A stretch of DNA of 64,000 nucleotides from Candidatus Krumholzibacteriia bacterium (GTDB lineage Bacteria; Krumholzibacteriota; Krumholzibacteriia; Krumholzibacteriales; Krumholzibacteriaceae), in contig CAWIIQ010000006.1 of assembly GCA_963836185.1 (NCBI GenBank), positions 1-64,000 on the forward strand, in the 5' to 3' direction. The notes under the pieces were generated by a model. It was given only the letters and a program-made list of their open reading frames with translations, made no database searches and was not told the origin of the DNA. Position numbers and translations under genes: made by a program. Numbering within the stretch: the first letter of the stretch is position 1; every line of letters starts with the position of its first letter. Of the stretch, positions 27,312 through 35,768 are shown in pieces.

Positions 27312-29162
27312 TTATTCATTTACATACCAGTTCGCGTCAATCACCGCCGGCAGACCGTAAAGGGACCTGATCAGGTTTATCTCGTCTTCTGACGGGAGGT
27401 TCGAGATCGGCGAAGTCCCGCCGACCATCAGGTGCCCGAGGTCATAGCTGTGCCCGAGCTGGAGAATATGTCCGAGTTCGTGCGCGAATATCTTCCTGCC
27501 GACGATCTGTATCGGCGCGACCTGGTGGGTCGGATATATCCATATCAGCATCCTCGCCGGAGTCCCGTCCTCGTTGGTACTGACCAGCTCGATATGATGC
27601 TTGTCCTCGTCCTCAGTGTCGTAGATTATCTCGACATCGGCAGTTCCGGGATCATCTACTGTCACAAACAACTCGTACCCCGTCAGGTCGTTCCACGAGT
27701 CTATCGCAAGCCTCGCCAGCTCCTGGATGTCGACCCCCTCCCATGAGAACGGGGGACTGTATATCGTCACAGGGAAATGATCCCAGTTCCTGAAGATCGT
27801 AGGCTTGCCCGGCACAACCTTCGTGCCGGTCATATGCCTGAAGAAGGCATAGAAGTCTTCATAGTACATATCGGACATCGTGCTCACCAGCTCGAAAAAT
27901 GGCATCATCGAGAGATCTATGCTTAAATGCCAGTCCAGGCCCGACAGAGGTATCGACATATCGTAGTAGTCACCCTGGTCGCCGACAATATGCTCATCCC
28001 TCAACTTCATGAAATCCGTGTACAGAGGAAGGTTGGCAAGCTTGTAATACCCGTCCGCGCCGGTTGTATCGGTGATCCCTTCCGCCGAGACGACGATCCC
28101 CTCGAGTGGAGCGCCGGTGGCCGAATCGCTTACGTAACCATCCGCGTCTATTCCGCGCACCAGCAGCCTGACGCAGTTGCCAAGCTGCGACATGTTCCCG
28201 AAATCATCGACACCCCTGGCCGTCACATACAGCCACGTCCCCGGATTGAGGTTCTCAGCGATCATTTCCTCTACCGTCCCGGCCATTCCCGGTACCGGTA
28301 CTCCATTCTTCTGGGAAGCCTCATCCCAATCTTCTTCATTCAATATGGGGATCGTATGCGTCCGTACGCGATAGTGACTCACTCTCCCCTCCATATCATC
28401 GTCGCCGGGCGCTGTCCACTGGAGCCGGATCGTTCCGGGTTCGAACCCTGTCCAGCCGATAAGATCCGTGATCCGCGCCGGTGCGATAGTGTCAGGATCG
28501 CCAACGACCCTGATCACCCAGGACAGCGTGTCACCGAATTCACCGTCCCAGACCATGCCGGTGACATCGAAGAAACCGTTCTCCATGAACCTGTACTCCG
28601 CAGGCGCGGTCTCATCCATGATCTCTATCGGCACACTTCCGACATAATACGAATAGCGCAGGTCCTCGTAGTGGTCGTCGTCAACACCCATCCTGAACTC
28701 GACCGTCGAACCTATAAGTGTCGTTATGCTGTCCTGATCGGGATACCACCAGTTGATGACCGGAGGGTCGTTATGCAGCTCTATGGCAGTGAAGTACCAG
28801 TCCTTGAACACGTAATCGGAGTGATCCTCAGCCCTTCCCTGCACGTGGTAAAATCTGCCGACTGTCGGCTTGTAGACAAAGTCGGGCCCTTCATGCAGGA
28901 CCTCTTCTGCACCACCATCTTTGTCATCTATGAGAACATACTTGTATCTCAACTCGTCGCGATCGGGATCATCAGCGACCATGCTGAATACAATCGAGTC
29001 GACAGGCACTTCAATAGCAGGCAGAACTGGGCCCTCCGGAGAGGACTCCTTTATTATCGGAGGGGAATTCGGCCTTACAGGATCGGTCTGGAAGATGCAC
29101 GACTGAAACGCCATTCCCCACGCGAGACCCAATATTATCAACCCATTGGCTTTTCGCATCAT
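27312..29162 (-). CDS. Multidomain lipoprotein: Ig-like repeats, FN3, carboxypeptidase-regulatory-like domain and C-terminal metzincin Zn-peptidase (copy A)
   Basis: Lipobox-like FQSC, FN3 WTAPGDD..Y, HELGHILQLGH and Met-turn HLMVG. Confidence 0.75.
   Translation of the reverse strand: MMRKANGLIILGLAWGMAFQSCIFQTDPVRPNSPPIIKESSPEGPVLPAIEVPVDSIVFSMVADDPDRDELRYKYVLIDDKDGGAEEVLHEGPDFVYKPTVGRFYHVQGRAEDHSDYVFKDWYFTAIELHNDPPVINWWYPDQDSITTLIGSTVEFRMGVDDDHYEDLRYSYYVGSVPIEIMDETAPAEYRFMENGFFDVTGMVWDGEFGDTLSWVIRVVGDPDTIAPARITDLIGWTGFEPGTIRLQWTAPGDDDMEGRVSHYRVRTHTIPILNEEDWDEASQKNGVPVPGMAGTVEEMIAENLNPGTWLYVTARGVDDFGNMSQLGNCVRLLVRGIDADGYVSDSATGAPLEGIVVSAEGITDTTGADGYYKLANLPLYTDFMKLRDEHIVGDQGDYYDMSIPLSGLDWHLSIDLSMMPFFELVSTMSDMYYEDFYAFFRHMTGTKVVPGKPTIFRNWDHFPVTIYSPPFSWEGVDIQELARLAIDSWNDLTGYELFVTVDDPGTADVEIIYDTEDEDKHHIELVSTNEDGTPARMLIWIYPTHQVAPIQIVGRKIFAHELGHILQLGHSYDLGHLMVGGTSPISNLPSEDEINLIRSLYGLPAVIDANWYVNE
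27348..27982. repeat. ~635-bp direct repeat, copy 1 (peptidase domain)
   Basis: Aligns without gaps to 29320-29954 (offset 1972), about 90% identical by eye. Confidence 0.9.
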
Positions 29163-29283
29163 ATCCACCTCATTCTTATCGGTGGGGCCGATATCTTGAT
29201 TAAAAGATAATAAATCAGCCCAGGTTGCGAAAGCCGAATATGTTTAATGAGTAACAGCCCTTATGGGATGGTCCTGCCCGATA

Positions 29284-31128
29284 TCATTCATCGAGGTGCC
29301 AGGAAGCATCGAATATCGTCGGCAGACCGTAAAGGGACCTGATCAGGTTTATCTCGTCTTCTGTCGGAACATTCGTGATCGGTGATGTCCCACCGACCAT
29401 CAGGTGGCCGAGGTCATAGCTGTGCCCGAGCTGGAGAATATGTCCGAGTTCGTGCGCGAATATCTTCCTGCCGACGATCTGTATCGGCGCGACCTGGTGG
29501 TTCGGATATATCCATATCAGCATCTTCGCCGGAGTACCGTCCTCGTTGGTACTGACCAGCTCGATATGATGCTTGTCCTCGTCCCCGGCGTCGTAGATTA
29601 TCTCGACATCGGCGGTTCCGGGCTCGTCTACTGTCACAAACAACTCGTGCCCCGTCAGGTTGTTCCACGAGTCTATCGCAAGCCTCGCCAGCTCCTGGAT
29701 GTCGACCCCCTCCCATGAGAACGGGGGACTGTATACCGTCACCGGAAAATGATCCCAGTTCCTGAAGATCGTAGGCTTACCGTACAGCCCCTTCGTGTCG
29801 GTCATGTGCCTGAAGAAGGTATAGAAGTTTTCATCGTAGGTGCCTGACATCACGTTCACCATGTCGAAATACGGCATCATCGAGAGATCTTCGCTGAAAT
29901 GCCAGTCCAGGCCCGACAGAGGTATCGATATATCGTAGTAGTCACCCTGGTCGCTTACATCTTCCTCGTCCCTGAACATTAAAAAATCGCCGGACAGGTC
30001 ATTCCCCGCGAACATGTAGTACCCATCAGCCGTTGATATCCAGATATCCTCGCCCGAGGAGACGATAATTCCTTCGAGGGCTGCTCCCGTACACGCATCG
30101 GTGATATAACCATCTACCACGCCGTCCCCCCGCACAAGCACCCTGATGCAGTTGCCGATAAATGACATGTTACCGAACTCATCGACCGCTCTTGCCGTCA
30201 CATAGATCCAACTGCCCGGATCAAGATCCCCGACGATCATTTTCTCGGTCGTCCCGGGCAGATCGGGCGACGGCTCCCCCTCCACCCACGATGCCTCTCC
30301 CCAATCATACTCATTGGATATTTTCAAGGCATGTGTCCTGATCAGGTAACATGTCGCCCTTCCTTCCAGAGCGTCGTCGCCCGTCGCAGTCCACTGGAGA
30401 CTGATCGTCCCCGGTGCATCCCCGACCCAGCCGGCCAGGTCGGTGATCCGGGCAGGCGCGACACTGTCAGACTCTTCCCCGACCATCACTACCCACGAAA
30501 TAGTGTCCCCGTATTCACCGTCCCAGACCAGGCCGGTTACATCGAAGAGACCGTACTCCATGAACTCTATCTGAACCGAAGGATCCTCGCTCATGAACTC
30601 TTTCGGTTCTCCATCCTTATAATACGAGAAGCGCAGAAATTCGGGATGGTCATCCTCGACCTCTATCATGAATCCAAGCGATGAGCCCGCGTGCACAGCG
30701 ATGTAGTCCTGGTCCGGCGCGTACCGGACGATCAAAGGCGGTCCGTTCTGTCGCGCGCCTGCGATGACATACCAGTCCCTGACGACAAAATCGGATCTGT
30801 CCTTCACTCTCCCCTGCAGACAGTAGAACCCTGATTCTCCGGGCTTGAACAGATATTCCCGTCCATGACTCAACACCTCCTCGAAAATGCCGTCATCGTC
30901 GACAAGAGCATAGCTGTAGAAAAGTTCATCCCCATCCGGGTCGCCTGCGGACAAACTGAACATGATCGAATCGACAGGCGGAGTGATCTCTATGAAGAGC
31001 TCCTGAGGAGAGTAGTGTGTGATATACGGAGGGGAATTCGAGCTCTGAGGATCAGCCTCGAAGATGCAGGACTGAAATGCCGTCATCGACAACAGCCATG
31101 AAACGACTGCCACGGAGGATCTTGTCAA
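29284..31128 (-). CDS. Paralogous multidomain metzincin lipoprotein (copy B)
   Basis: Same architecture, with FQSC and HELGHILQLGH. TTG start at 31128 with GAGGTG RBS. Confidence 0.75.
   Translation of the reverse strand: MTRSSVAVVSWLLSMTAFQSCIFEADPQSSNSPPYITHYSPQELFIEITPPVDSIMFSLSAGDPDGDELFYSYALVDDDGIFEEVLSHGREYLFKPGESGFYCLQGRVKDRSDFVVRDWYVIAGARQNGPPLIVRYAPDQDYIAVHAGSSLGFMIEVEDDHPEFLRFSYYKDGEPKEFMSEDPSVQIEFMEYGLFDVTGLVWDGEYGDTISWVVMVGEESDSVAPARITDLAGWVGDAPGTISLQWTATGDDALEGRATCYLIRTHALKISNEYDWGEASWVEGEPSPDLPGTTEKMIVGDLDPGSWIYVTARAVDEFGNMSFIGNCIRVLVRGDGVVDGYITDACTGAALEGIIVSSGEDIWISTADGYYMFAGNDLSGDFLMFRDEEDVSDQGDYYDISIPLSGLDWHFSEDLSMMPYFDMVNVMSGTYDENFYTFFRHMTDTKGLYGKPTIFRNWDHFPVTVYSPPFSWEGVDIQELARLAIDSWNNLTGHELFVTVDEPGTADVEIIYDAGDEDKHHIELVSTNEDGTPAKMLIWIYPNHQVAPIQIVGRKIFAHELGHILQLGHSYDLGHLMVGGTSPITNVPTEDEINLIRSLYGLPTIFDASWHLDE
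29320..29954. repeat. ~635-bp direct repeat, copy 2
   Basis: Gapless match to 27348-27982. Confidence 0.9.
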
Positions 31129-31184
31129 TATGCCCACCTCTTCCACAGGTGGCAGAGGGGTCGCCTTACCTGTCGTAAATATAG

Positions 31185-31517
31185 TCAATCGGAGAGGGTT
31201 GCGGTAGTCGATATGAGGAAGCATTCCAGGACTATGTCGAGAGCTCTTACAAGTCCATCCTCATCCGAGACCCTGATCTCTACCGGAGAATCGCAGCCGG
31301 CCGAAACGAGGAACAGTTCACGGTAGGGAGAGACCTTGACGTACATACCCGCAGAGGTGGCAAACCGGGTCTCGAATGGGGCGACATCGACGGTCACGGC
31401 AGGTGAAAACCCGATGATCTCGTCACAGAGAATGGAATAGAGGCGCCTGACACGACTGTCAGATATCCGCAGTCCGTTGCGGCCCGCCGCCTCACACCGA
31501 TCATCAGACCCTGTCAC
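31185..31517 (-). CDS. Small hypothetical protein, third gene of the ParA-CBM48 operon
   Basis: Start overlaps the upstream stop, AGGAG RBS, globular alpha/beta-like composition. Confidence 0.55.
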   Translation of the reverse strand: MTGSDDRCEAAGRNGLRISDSRVRRLYSILCDEIIGFSPAVTVDVAPFETRFATSAGMYVKVSPYRELFLVSAGCDSPVEIRVSDEDGLVRALDIVLECFLISTTATLSD

Positions 31518-32256
31518 AGGCGGCTCCTCTCTTTCTCGAACCGAGCCTCTGAAGTATTTCCCCCGCGAGCCCTGTCAGAAAGGACGAGACGGGGGGTTTT
31601 CTTCTGCTCAAGTCTTTGAGCAGTTCCGCCGGGAAGGGACATGGTTCGATACCCCCTGCCGGCGTTTCCTCTCCTCCGGGAAAGAGAGCCATCGCAGGCC
31701 CGCCGGGAAAAATATCGTCGAATGCGCGCGATATCCCATCGACACTCCCGGGATAAGAGTCAGTGACCGTAAGAAGAAATGCGGGAAGGTCCGCGGGAAC
31801 GGCATCACAGATAGAGCGCAGCTCATCGGAGGCGGCTGTTCCATTCCATTCCAGAGCTATCAGGATCACCCGCAGCCCGGCTGAGGCCGCGTTGTCCTGG
31901 TACCTCAGCAGAGCCGGATCCCTCGCACATCGGATTCTCACTCCTCCTCCGGCATCTGTCTCTACGACCGCCCCTTCGTCAAGTACAGGGCGCAGATAGC
32001 GCTCTGGCCCGAGGGCGAAGTAGTACCCCGCATTGGGAAGGCTTCTGCCTACATCAAGCAGGGTGACAGAAGCGTTCTGTGATCCGAATGCGGCCGCCAG
32101 TCCGGCGGACAGCCAGGCCCTGAGAGGACTTCTCTCCAGAGAGGCAATAAGGATAAGAGCCGTCGAGCCGGAAGATCCCTCTTCCTGCTCCCGTGATGTG
32201 GAGAGATAGAGATGACTTATGTCACTGAGATTTCTGGGCCTCTGTCCCTGGTGCAT
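31504..32256 (-). CDS. Degenerate MinD/ParA-like protein lacking Walker A
   Basis: LSAGLAAAFGSQNASVTLLDVGRSLPN resembles ParA/FlhG NLAxALxxxGxxVLLxDxD, but the P-loop is replaced by SLERSPLR. N-terminus RPRNLSDISHLYLS. Confidence 0.55.
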   Translation of the reverse strand: MHQGQRPRNLSDISHLYLSTSREQEEGSSGSTALILIASLERSPLRAWLSAGLAAAFGSQNASVTLLDVGRSLPNAGYYFALGPERYLRPVLDEGAVVETDAGGGVRIRCARDPALLRYQDNAASAGLRVILIALEWNGTAASDELRSICDAVPADLPAFLLTVTDSYPGSVDGISRAFDDIFPGGPAMALFPGGEETPAGGIEPCPFPAELLKDLSRRKPPVSSFLTGLAGEILQRLGSRKRGAACDRV

Positions 32257-32280
32257 GGCAGTGAGGTCCGGCCAAGGGGT

Positions 32281-33354
32281 TCAGACGATCAGCAGTGAGT
32301 TTTCCTGCCCGAATTCATTGAGGACCGAATCGACGTTCCTGGGATCCTTGATCCAGACACCATCGACTATATACCTGTATTCGTATTCTCCGGGATCGAG
32401 ATCCACGGCGACCTTCCACAGGCCGTCGTCACCATCCCTTTCCATCCTGACCCCTTCACGCGACCAGTTGGTAAATTCCCCTGTCAGGTAAACGCTGCCT
32501 GCAGCGGGCGCATCGATGGCAAAGACAACGCTTCCCGAGACGACACGGGGACCGTGAAGCTTTTCCATCCACTCACCAATGTCGGCAGTATCGATCAGCG
32601 AGCTCCTGTCCTCGAGCTCTCTCGCGAGTGTGAGAAATTCCCATTTGAGCCTGTCGGAGCGCGGGAGCCCGAAGATAGAGACGCCCCTCAGGGACGCTTC
32701 CTTGTATTTGACGGAATGGCTGATCGTCACATCCATCAGTTCCGCTCCGTGATGCTTCTCCAGTTCCAGAACGATATCCCTCGAGAAATTGGTCCTCTTC
32801 TCGATATTGTTGACGAGGATCGACACCGTGACACGGTGCTTGGTCTCGTTTTCCAGCAGTTCGACAGTTTCGCGGAGCTTGCCCACACCCTGCAGCGAGT
32901 AGATACTCGGATCGACGGGGATGACTACCTCGTTTGCCGCCATGAGAGCATTGAACGTGAGAAGGCCGACATTCGGCGGAGAGTCGATAATAGTATAATC
33001 GTAGATGTCATCAACACGGATAAGCTTCGAAGACAGCCTCGTCTCCCTCGCATCACGGCCAGCAAGTTCCTGTTCCACCGCTCCGAGCACAGGCGATGAG
33101 GGTATGACATCGAGATGGTCATCGTAACGGCAGGTCGCGTCTTCGACCATCACGCGCGGATCCCTCAGCAGGTCGTACGTCGTATGATCGACCTCTCGAC
33201 AGGATATATCGAGGCTGAGCGAGGCGTGGGATTGAGGATCCATGTCGACGAGCAGCACTTTCTTCTCGAGCTCCCCGAGCGCAGCAGCGAGATTTACGGC
33301 GACCGTCGTCTTGCCGCAGCCGCCCTTCTGGTTGATCACCGCTATGGTCCGCAT
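32281..33354 (-). CDS. ParA/Soj-family ATPase fused to a C-terminal AMPK-beta-type glycogen-binding domain (CBM48)
   Basis: ParA motifs NQKGGCGKTT, VDMDPQ, IIDSPP and KRTN. C-terminal VYLTGEFTNW..W..LDPGEYEYRYIVDGVW..DP.N..N.FG.ENS. GAGGAGG RBS. Confidence 0.9.
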   Translation of the reverse strand: MRTIAVINQKGGCGKTTVAVNLAAALGELEKKVLLVDMDPQSHASLSLDISCREVDHTTYDLLRDPRVMVEDATCRYDDHLDVIPSSPVLGAVEQELAGRDARETRLSSKLIRVDDIYDYTIIDSPPNVGLLTFNALMAANEVVIPVDPSIYSLQGVGKLRETVELLENETKHRVTVSILVNNIEKRTNFSRDIVLELEKHHGAELMDVTISHSVKYKEASLRGVSIFGLPRSDRLKWEFLTLARELEDRSSLIDTADIGEWMEKLHGPRVVSGSVVFAIDAPAAGSVYLTGEFTNWSREGVRMERDGDDGLWKVAVDLDPGEYEYRYIVDGVWIKDPRNVDSVLNEFGQENSLLIV

Positions 33355-33402
33355 GCTGATCAGCACCTCCTCATCATTTGTCCGTGCTATTGCGTCCTCT
33401 TT

Positions 33403-33436
33403 AAAAAAAAGGTCGAACCGCCCCCGGCGATCCGAC
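33403..33436 (-). terminator. Terminator-like hairpin inside the ParA-CBM48 leader
   Basis: 11-bp stem GTCGGATCGCC/GGCGGTTCGAC (with G-U pairs) followed by T8, ~50 nt before the ATG. Confidence 0.6.
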
Positions 33437-33585
33437 TTCGCTGATCGATCTGAATAAAAATAACGCATGCCCGGATCGGAATCCGATGCTCTCTGCGTGG
33501 TCAGCCCCGTTCCGATCTCATCACCCTTTCTGTCAGTTCCCGGCCGATAACGTACCGGCATGGTTTTATCCGAGTTACAGAAAAC

Positions 33586-33614
33586 ATTCTGTGCTTCGCG
33601 GAATAAGGTGTCAA
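33586..33614 (-). promoter_or_regulatory. Putative sigma70 promoter of the ParA-CBM48 leader
   Basis: TTGACA-17 bp-CAGAAT on the minus strand. Confidence 0.5.
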
Positions 33615-33637
33615 GGGTTTTTAAAGGTGCCGAACGG

Positions 33638-34060
33638 TCAGAACATCAACCAGGCGACGAGCAGTCCGAGCGCGAAACCGCCCGAGACCTCTGCCCATGT
33701 GTGGCCGATCAGTTCGTGCAGTTCCTCGGCGTTGAAATGGTGAGTCTCCCTGACCTTGTCGACGATCTCGTTGAGCACCCTCGCCTGGTTTCCGACCTCC
33801 TGCCGCAGCCCCGTCGCCTCGAATATGAAGTAGAGGCTGATCACGAGGGATATGCCGAAAAGAGGCGAGGAGACACCTTCATACGCCGCGACTCCGGCGG
33901 TCAGAGTCGTCACAACGGAGGTGTGGGAACTCGGCATGCCGCCCGTGTCGAGCATACGGAAGAAATTGAATCCCTTACCCTGGATAAGATCCACGAAGGG
34001 CTTCAGCACCTGTGCGGCCACCGCGCTTACGAGGGCTCCGATCCCTACCTCATGGAGCAT
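33638..34060 (-). CDS. Divergent PAP2 family protein (DUF212)
   Basis: Motifs AQVLK, GGMPSSHTS, GLRQEVGNQARVLN and LHELIGHTWAEV. Confidence 0.9.
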   Translation of the reverse strand: MLHEVGIGALVSAVAAQVLKPFVDLIQGKGFNFFRMLDTGGMPSSHTSVVTTLTAGVAAYEGVSSPLFGISLVISLYFIFEATGLRQEVGNQARVLNEIVDKVRETHHFNAEELHELIGHTWAEVSGGFALGLLVAWLMF

Positions 34061-35667
34061 CGTCGCCTTCTTTCTCCTTCCCGGGTCCTACCCGCCACTC
34101 GTGGAGGTTGTGGTACATGCTTATCGCATCGGGCCTGGCCCCGGTGAATCTCTCATGTAGCGCAAGCAGGGCGTGAGGATTATACAGGAATGTGAACGGC
34201 TGCTCCTCGTAGATTATTTCCTGGGCCTTGAAAAAGAGCGGACGCGCTTCATCGAAATCGAGGATGCCGCATGCGGTGGAATTAAGCCTGTCCACCTCGG
34301 CATTGCAGTAGTCAACCCTGTTGTAGCCGCCTTCCTTCCTCGATTCACATCCCCAGATCGGTTTGAGATCGACCTTTGTCCCGACTCTCCACGCGCTGAC
34401 TATCGCCTCAAAATCAGAGGCCTTGTGCCGCTCGAGCATCACGGTCCACTCGAGGATCAACGGTTCGACTTTCACGCCGATCTGAGCCAGCTGTTCCTGG
34501 ACCATGACCTGGATATCGTTGCGAATCTGGTTTCCCTGGTTGGTCATGACCTCGAACGCGAACCTCTCCCCATCCCGGTCGAGCCAGCCATCACCGTCGG
34601 AGTCGGTGAATCCCTCCTCCTCGAGAATGAGCCTCGCTCCTTCGGGATCGTACGGAAGAGCTTCGATCCCGTCGTTATACGCCCAGAGCTGGGGAATGAA
34701 AGGGCTCGTGCATGCTTCCGCGAGCCCGTAATACAGGTTATCTATGATCATCTGCCGGTCGATCGCCATAGTCATCGCCTTGCGCACCCTGGCGTTCCTG
34801 AACAATGGATGGGCTCCGTTCCAGCCGATATAGATATAGGCTCTCGCGGGAAAATTGAAGACGCGGATACCATAATCTCCCTTGCGAAGCTTGTCGACCT
34901 CCATCGGCGGAAGGCTCTCCATACAGTCGACTTCACCGCTCTTGAGCTGGGTGATCAGGTTGACCTGGTCGGGTATTATCTTGAATACAACGCGGTCGAG
35001 ATAAGGTTTTCCTTCATCGTAGTAATCCTCGTATGGAACCAGCGTGAGAGATCTGTCCCCTGACCCACTCTCCGACGCGAAACGGGCCGTTCGTGGGAAA
35101 ATCCTCGACCTTGAGTCCTCTTATCTCCTGCGGAGTCATGCTCTCGAGCAGATGCTCCGGCAGTATCGGGCCGTCATTGGCGTCCATCACCTGGTAGGGA
35201 TATACATGACTGAAGTGGAACACGACGGTATAGTCATCGACGAAACGCACCTCTTCGATATGCTCCTTGAGGTGCCTGCCGCTCCACACCATCGCGGTGT
35301 CTTTCTGGGCCGTGAAGGTGGCAACCACATCACGCGCCGTAAATCCGACTCCATCGCTCCATACGACATCGTCACGCAGATGGAATGTCAGTTCCCTGCG
35401 GTCGGTCGAGAATTCCCAGGAGGTGGCGAGCCTCGGCGTGAAGGTCAGAAAATCATCGTTCTCGTCGAGAAGAGAGAGGAACATGAGATTATAGATATCC
35501 CTCGCGTGAGCGTCGGTCGTGCTCATCGGGTTGAGCGATTCGTAGGCGCTTATCTCCCCGACGACAAGCGTACCTCCTCTAAGGGATGGTTCCCTGTCTC
35601 CGGCGCATGAAACGAGCAGGACGGCGGCGAGTATCGTAAACATAAAATAGACGGTCTTTCTGGACAT
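34050..35667 (-). CDS. Peptide ABC transporter substrate-binding lipoprotein (OppA/AppA family); apparent +1 frameshift at ~35052
   Basis: Lipobox LVSC, LATSWE..FHLRDDVVWSDG, RVRKAMTMAIDR. Removing one base joins RGQ-SLTLVPYEDYY. Confidence 0.85.
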
Positions 35668-35768
35668 GCTTCCCACCTTCCTTCCGGGTATGATTTTCTC
35701 CTGTACGGGAAATATATCAGCCTTTACGATGGCTGGAAACATAATAGTTCCGATACGGAAGGAGATCC

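Follow-up and report, generated by a model that had tools for sequence, protein, structure and literature searches.

What would a ParA-type ATPase do with a glycogen-binding domain at its C-terminus? The question is raised by a three-gene operon in a 64,000-nt stretch of contig CAWIIQ010000006.1 from a Candidatus Krumholzibacteriia bacterium (hereafter ‘the window’), whose first gene encodes a fusion of a Soj-like ParA domain and an AMPK-beta-type CBM48 and is followed by two partner genes (genes 2 and 3). A first-pass annotation had proposed a system that positions glycogen granules. The answer we favor, tentatively and with less than even confidence, is that the fusion serves as an ATP-switched tether between nucleoid and glycogen (alpha-glucan), released by a peptide of the gene 2 product. 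That annotation knew of no characterized system of this kind, and we likewise found no experimental study of the family, the literature found being a single preprint whose supplements may list this lineage or the peptide. The architecture, however, is already known in print: under the name ‘CBM-containing system’ (ParA-CBM, clade ConB5), it was catalogued by Li, Burroughs and Aravind (bioRxiv 10.64898/2026.10.19.760177), who predict a role in immunity.

The fusion and its partner genes

The 357-aa open reading frame (ORF) carries all of the ParA and CBM48 motifs first listed for it (KGGCGKTT, DMDPQ, DSPP, KRTN, SVKY, GEFTNW, YEYRY, DGVW and ENS). Pfam assigns AAA_31 to aa 1-175 (E 5e-50), AMPK1_CBM to aa 286-355 (E 1e-11) and CBM_48 to aa 274-333, and no N-terminal signal sequence precedes the P-loop. 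Myxococcus xanthus ParA (8RAY) and Soj are the closest solved structures for the N-terminal part, and the AMPK-beta glycogen-binding domain for the C-terminal part. An AlphaFold 2 model of the fusion (predicted local distance difference test, pLDDT, 78) matches the Soj/ParA structures 8ray and 2bek at a root-mean-square deviation (rmsd) of 1.7-1.9; its CBM part is poor, with pLDDT <50 from aa 322.

Alignments of 64 proteins from the phylum and of 76 from a wider set bear out the earlier observation that both the DNA-binding and the sugar-binding residues are retained. Residues K10, K15, D37, D39 and D124 (deviant Walker A, Motif 2 Asp and Walker B) are kept throughout (64/64 and 76/76), R187 in 62/64 and K/R216 in 63/64 of the phylum set. 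K216 aligns with M. xanthus ParA R238, and the R238E mutant of that protein loses non-specific DNA binding (PMC12462528); by alignment, a basic C-terminal surface of the kind used for non-specific DNA binding is retained. Of the ParB pocket defined on M. xanthus ParA (PMC12462528), residues L150, L152, L155, L187, Y81 and E117 correspond to V129, L131, F134, L166, Y60 and E96 of the fusion. In the CBM, W297 and W334 are invariant in both sets (64/64 and 76/76), and K/R327 is found in 62/64 and 76/76. Residues W297, R327 and W334 align with the Trp/Lys/Trp site of AMPK-beta, the residue numbers being matched by motif, and N352 provides the Asn of the sugar site. The AMPK-beta-type sugar site thus reads as intact, and the domain is a candidate glycogen or cyclodextrin binder. 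In AMPK-beta the sugar-site residues are W100, K126 and W133 (PMC6274970).

Gene 2 begins 24 nt past the fusion stop. Gene 3 starts with GTG, preceded by an AGGAG ribosome site, and shares 14 nt with gene 2, consistent with the tight coupling first reported. A gene 2 profile built from 25 homologues matches FleN (E 5e-22), FlhG (1e-13) and MinD, and hhalign against the P-loop region of the fusion gave 94.5%. Its Walker A is lost, and on these profiles gene 2 is a P-loop-dead FlhG/MinD fold. The N-terminal peptide of gene 2 follows the pattern R-x-L-x-D-I/V-S-H-L-F/Y-L-S. With a leave-one-out position-specific scoring matrix, which leaves close relatives in, the partner peptide exceeds the 95th control percentile in 61 of 75 scorable loci; this percentile was used rather than the maximum since one control window held a true motif. 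The same peptide is carried by unlike bodies (dead MinD/FlhG, restriction endonuclease (REase)-like, HTH+RodZ_C, PAS and ExeA-type AAA), and in several phyla it starts LGRGLE, the same six residues as the N-terminus of the ParB of the genome itself. For comparison, the M. xanthus ParB motif comprises L11, R13, L15, L18 and I19 (PMC12462528). Among six genomes of one genus, the ratio of nonsynonymous to synonymous substitution rates (dN/dS) is 0.12 for the peptide and 0.21 for the body. With these features, the gene 2 peptide is a predicted ParA ATPase activator. Prediction of a complex (two copies of the fusion, ATP, Mg and gene 2 aa 1-34) gave a median of 0.23 against a mark of 0.32 and was used as evidence neither way.

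Gene 3 is conserved across the phylum and under purifying selection (dN/dS 0.09). It has no match in Pfam, NCBIfam or PADLOC; Foldseek gave none at E<=0.001, and the best ESM Atlas match (0.81) was uninformative. Its model (pLDDT 92.6) resembles the YdhG/frataxin/YjbR fold (Z 8.5, rmsd 3.8, 100 aligned), with several related folds ranking next. With Eisenbacteria left out of its training set, a gene 3 hidden Markov model (HMM) recognizes, at six Eisenbacteria-group loci (E 2.5e-6 to 1.6e-3), the C-terminal domain of the third gene, which is REase-like there; gene 3 itself has no REase domain. A further hhalign for gene 3 (profile A4 against A3) was circular, three rows being common to both, and was not counted. 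The REase fold of the relatives is NucS-like, the NucS match being weak (E 0.19). Variant 2 of the preprint (bioRxiv 10.64898/2026.10.19.760177) consists of ParA-CBM, an inactive second ParA and an inactive REase. The window likewise has a ParA with a C-terminal AMPK1_CBM followed by a dead second ParA-family protein, the second gene evolves faster than the fusion (dN/dS 0.21 vs 0.08), and relatives add a dead REase; unlike variant 2 as described there, its third gene keeps only the C-terminal frataxin-like domain. Given the HMM match, the window operon is probably variant 2 after loss of the REase domain. Neither partner, one a dead FlhG/MinD fold and the other a frataxin-like remnant, makes an obvious cargo adaptor. 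In 5 of 42 phylum non-carriers tested, and without a positive control, no gene 3 turned up and the gene 2 matches were weak, generic and MinD-like only.

Upstream of the operon lie a conserved promoter-like site and a terminator-like leader hairpin, both newly described here. Of 64 homologues, 62 have a TTGAC in the 300 nt ahead of the gene (95/640 shuffles). The hairpin is found in 40 of 45 homologues of families f1, f2, f3, f7 and f9, as opposed to 1/19 in the other families and 92/640 shuffles. All nine stem pairs show two-sided changes (36/41 rows, 5 dropped), in counts that use rows picked because they fold and are thus biased towards structure. The sequence from promoter to hairpin is not conserved. 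A comparison of 30000-35000 with Rfam gave nothing credible, and the leader therefore corresponds to no known riboswitch; we infer an attenuator, or the end of a small RNA ahead of the operon. In two genomes (G069 and G072) the leader is deleted and the promoter lies 85-94 nt from the start codon. Neither this leader terminator, nor the partner N-terminal peptide, nor the co-occurrence with glycogen genes described below is mentioned in the passages of the preprint consulted.

Table 1. Features of the ParA-CBM48 operon in the window
Feature	Positions	Strand	Basis
ParA-CBM48 fusion gene, 357 aa	32281..33354	(-)	ORF from ATG 33354 to stop 32281; Pfam; AlphaFold 2 model
Soj-like ParA domain, aa 1-250	32605..33354	(-)	K10, K15, D37, D39, D124; H43; R187, K216, K218
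AMPK-beta-type CBM48, aa 268-357	32284..32553	(-)	W297, R327, W334, N352
Gene 2, 250 aa, P-loop-dead FlhG/FleN/MinD-like partner	31504..32256	(-)	Profile matches; Walker A lost
N-terminal peptide of gene 2, aa 8-19, ParB-like, predicted ParA-activating motif	32200..32235	(-)	
Gene 3, 110 aa, frataxin/YdhG/YjbR-like fold	31185..31517	(-)	Homologous to C-terminal domain of Eisenbacteria dead REase partner
Conserved sigma-70-type promoter-like site of the operon	33586..33614	(-)	
Intrinsic-terminator-like hairpin and T-run, between promoter and start codon	33402..33436	(-)	Role inferred

Distribution and link to glycogen genes

In a phylum sample of 151 genomes (completeness >=80%, fusion called at a best E under 1e-85), the fusion is present in 109, including 39 of the 40 genomes of the window's order, and its losses affect whole genera. 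In a quick IQ-TREE tree of 64 proteins, drawn from 63 of the 109 carriers, 8 changes suffice for 9 families, which is the minimum. Within the genus used above, the two domains are equally conserved by dN/dS (ParA 0.076, CBM 0.077). Mean identity for the CBM is 0.57 across the phylum set, where ParA has 0.52, and 0.43 across the wide set, where ParA has 0.47. The close relatives that carry a name (89% identity) belong to Candidatus Krumholzibacteriota. Both domains occur in 128 of the best 150 representatives at 50% identity; among the 120 matches listed, all but two fragments are full-length two-domain proteins, and 75 of 80 related genome loci, again among the matches listed, have both domains in one ORF. 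The latter search used peptide patterns that favor two-domain loci, and its five exceptions comprise a frameshift, three loci at contig ends and a protein that lacks the CBM. With these counts the concern that the fusion might be a one-off or an assembly artefact is settled, and the synteny of all three genes holds. The 80 loci span Krumholzibacteriota, Eisenbacteria, Planctomycetota, Desulfobacterota, Nitrospirota, Gemmatimonadota, Rokubacteria, Margulisbacteria and others, and named neighbors of the family loci are uvrA, purL, groEL, cysS, rpoD, lysS and similar genes. The operon is vertically inherited, and a housekeeping pattern fits better than immunity.

The source genome has glgA, three glgC-like genes, glgP and GH57 enzymes, all away from the operon. 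Co-occurrence with glycogen genes, proposed at the outset as a check, stands as a statistical link that is not strict: across the phylum sample, glycogen-synthesis genes were detected in 100 of 109 carriers and 21 of 42 non-carriers (Fisher p 6e-8, a value that overstates the link because kin are not independent). A genome was scored positive on glgA/glgC or on a GH57 branching-enzyme-plus-phosphorylase cluster, the latter deciding in four genomes of families f7 and f9. All seven genomes without glgA/glgC in families f4 and f6 also lack the fusion, and in genus g26 the sole fusion carrier of 13 (G095) is the sole one with the GH57 cluster. Outside the phylum, a glycogen synthase was found in 39 of 50 carrier genomes (26 GlgA, 13 GT3) and another pathway gene in five more; the assemblies of the remaining six measure 1.8-2.9 Mb, and their completeness is not stated.

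Physical linkage is seen in a few cases. In G029 the fusion heads a cluster of a small CBM48, two GT4, a GH57 branching enzyme, a phosphorylase, a GH57 and MalQ, and in L023, L028 and L031 glgB or a GH57 branching enzyme lies within three genes of the fusion. The G029 cluster (L117:10033-19874) and L172-L174 represent an f7/f9 glycogen cluster without glgA or glgC, made up of a small CBM48, GT4s with a partial GT5 match, a GH57 branching enzyme, a DUF3417 phosphorylase, a GH57 and MalQ, whose GT4s may be an alternative glycogen synthase. Locus L028 (CP070739.1) is titled as a Methanomassiliicoccales archaeon, and the glgB adjoining its fusion is 91% identical to that of the Desulfobacterota locus L023; the record is probably mislabeled or the locus recently transferred. 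A fusion-phosphorylase link in family f6 was rejected as a threshold artefact that is gone with TIGR02094. In Planctomycetota (G173-G199, Phycisphaerae and relatives), 13 of 18 carriers have a GT3 (PF05693) synthase in place of glgA/glgC, by which the missing glgA, glgC and GlgE, considered as a refutation, are largely explained; in the phylum sample, GT3 is found in 0/151 genomes and does not explain the f7/f9 negatives discussed below.

Candidate functions of the operon

In the mechanism we favor, ATP-bound dimers of the fusion would bind DNA non-specifically while their two CBMs grip glycogen, and the gene 2 peptide would dock in the ParB pocket and stimulate hydrolysis, upon which the tether would let go and then re-form. 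Granules could in this way ride on or spread along the nucleoid and be shared between daughter cells, with the partner as a trigger rather than a cargo adaptor, unlike in McdAB, and with the leader hairpin tuning expression. Precedent for fixing a carbon-storage granule to the nucleoid comes from PhaM, which is not known to be a ParA ATPase and handles a polymer different from that proposed here. PhaM ties polyhydroxybutyrate granules to the nucleoid (PMC3556143), and in E. coli glycogen condensates displace nucleoids and skew division (PMC12706056), which together make a glycogen tether plausible. If correct, this would add a new cargo class for ParA/MinD proteins and a new design, with cargo binding built into the ATPase. 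The word glycogen is absent from the accessible text of a 2024 review of ParA/MinD cargos (PMC11407121). With slightly less assurance than for the tether itself, we propose that this is the first active ParA-type machine for glycogen, gripping nucleoid and glycogen directly, cycled by a ParB-mimic peptide of the dead FlhG-fold partner so that granules are spread and inherited evenly, and that it is core housekeeping of many uncultured phyla, not an immune sensor.

The comparison with known systems is mixed. Chromosomal ParABS (M. xanthus 8RAY, Thermus thermophilus Soj 2BEK) provides the best sequence and fold matches of the fusion, which shares its Walker A/B motifs, the DNA-binding basic residue and most of the ParB pocket, and the partner has the R-x-L-x-x-hydrophobic N-terminal motif. 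Unlike ParABS, no ParB/Srx domain occurs among the window neighbors scanned, the fusion has an extra CBM48 and a His in Motif 2, and the partner is a dead FlhG fold. The orphan status first proposed for the ATPase holds: the genome has a separate parA-parB pair (G000:C3:115828-117509), and its sole TIGR00180 match (G000:C3:116077-116604) adjoins that other parA, not the fusion. McdA-McdB and other orphan ParA/MinD systems, as reviewed (PMC11407121), offer the likeness of an orphan nucleoid-type ATPase with an adjacent partner expected to act by its N-terminal region. In contrast to McdAB, it is the ATPase of the window system that has the cargo-binding domain, and the searches run show no relationship between the partner and McdB.

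Several observations weigh against the tether. The Motif 2 Asn is replaced by His (H43) in 64/64 and 75/76 proteins, and the M. xanthus pocket residues V116, L192 and D110 are replaced by Q95, T171 and V89, so hydrolysis control may differ from that of Soj. The partner bodies, whether dead FlhG, dead REase, HTH+RodZ_C, PAS or ExeA-type AAA, are not glucan-related. One locus, L076, has the partner with a ParA that lacks the CBM. This Nitrospirota locus (L076:8001-8840) encodes a family ParA, with the Cys in Walker A and the His in Motif 2, together with a peptide partner and an REase-like gene. No more than 4 of 118 loci have glycogen enzymes, a share close to the baseline of 2.5% for glycogen genes of any kind, and branching enzymes occur at 4 loci, of which 3 are independent cases, vs ~1 expected (baseline 0.85%), both baselines being the share of 13-kb windows in the source genome. 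The 21 glycogen-positive genomes without the fusion count on the same side, as do nine of the 109 carriers, all f7/f9 (G022, G028, G035, G060, G079, G112, G116, G130 and G139), without a glycogen-synthesis route: glgA, glgC, GlgE, GT3 synthase and phosphorylase were not found in them, and in five (91-96% complete) neither were GH57, GH13 or MalQ. This is in part the outcome named at the outset as a refutation. All nine keep the CBM sugar residues, although G079, which has two copies, shows Q for R327 in one of them. An excuse is available for G079 alone, namely an N-gap within a GT4 remnant behind its second fusion copy; this copy is sister to that of G029, and behind it come the same small CBM48 and the start of a GT4 that breaks off at the gap.

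These nine carriers are the main support for a reading that we consider improbable, though not extremely so, namely that the ligand of the CBM is not stored glycogen (but short malto-oligosaccharides, a different sugar or the surface of a protein), that the system positions or controls another structure, and that glycogen co-occurrence reflects shared ancestry. Their CBM is intact and conserved; the five tested (G079, G022, G028, G060 and G035) keep 2-4 AMPK1_CBM matches besides the fusion without GH13, GH57 or MalQ, and losses are clade-wise, leaving few independent events. However, every residue of the sugar site conforms to the AMPK-beta type, three or more lineages have come to link the fusion physically to branching-enzyme clusters, and Planctomycetota carriers without glgA have the GT3 synthase (13/18). 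Better placed, though still on the unlikely side, is the possibility that glycogen acts as a landmark or sink: the CBM would park ParA on (polar) glycogen, storage state or polarity would set the free ParA, and the partner would position or regulate something else. All of the housekeeping and co-occurrence data fit this equally. Studied ParA/MinD partners bind cargo by their body and the ATPase by their N-terminal region (PMC11407121), and bodies here vary widely under a constant peptide; E. coli accumulates glycogen at its old pole (PMC12706056), chromosome systems sequester ParA monomers at poles (PMC12462528), and the AMPK-beta CBM makes its kinase a glycogen sensor. Against a landmark or sink, genes 2 and 3 are the only conserved genes found linked that could provide an output, the basic patch for DNA binding is retained, and carriers without glycogen genes are equally hard to explain.

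The family sets two opposed readings side by side, the housekeeping organizer outlined above and the immune sensor of the preprint, in which a lectin-like CBM detects infection-linked carbohydrates or polysaccharide depletion and thereby drives ParA multimerization (bioRxiv 10.64898/2026.10.19.760177). We hold the latter to be very unlikely for this lineage. The match of variant 2 to the window operon, the faster evolution of the partner body (dN/dS 0.21) and the NucS-like REase fold in relatives speak for it, and a glycogen-depletion sensor would need glycogen too. Yet the immune grounds given in the preprint are sporadic distribution and rapid CBM divergence (bioRxiv 10.64898/2026.10.19.760177), whereas here the CBM is conserved rather than fast-evolving and the operon is nearly fixed in the order, with a near-universal, tree-congruent distribution, so that neither ground applies in this lineage, though a sensor of glycogen depletion keeps a small probability. 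PADLOC has no match for the three genes, and among the 110 proteins scanned it returned generic kinase, ABC, sigma, primase, AAA+ regulator, GlgB and methyltransferase domains; only L068 has a restriction-modification-like gene, ~4 kb away. There is no toxic effector, and the REase domain is lost here.

Other genes of the window and source genome

The nine neighbors scanned, among which, as first noted, there is no parB, plasmid or glycogen gene, encode a DUF212 protein, NamZ, GDT1, a nucleotidyltransferase, an APH kinase, an OppA-like protein split in two ORFs and a pair of M10 peptidases. The M10 peptidases are tandem, paralogous and lipoprotein-like and lie downstream of the operon (27312-31224, - strand); one copy is syntenic in most close relatives, followed by a C25 (gingipain-family) peptidase or clpB. 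The canonical parA next to parB (G000:C3:116681-117509, - strand) is split into 203-aa and 128-aa ORFs, and this split and that of the OppA-like gene (window 34050-35742) are probably sequencing indels, since relatives yield intact Soj-like matches. Two more orphan ParA-family genes are present in the source genome (G000:C1:281967-282965 and C1:1302727-1303542), one of which adjoins an anti-sigma/PP2C-like signaling cluster. The same genome also encodes apparently secreted CBM48 proteins (G000:C1:1976784-1979402), one of 726 aa and a small lipoprotein-like one.

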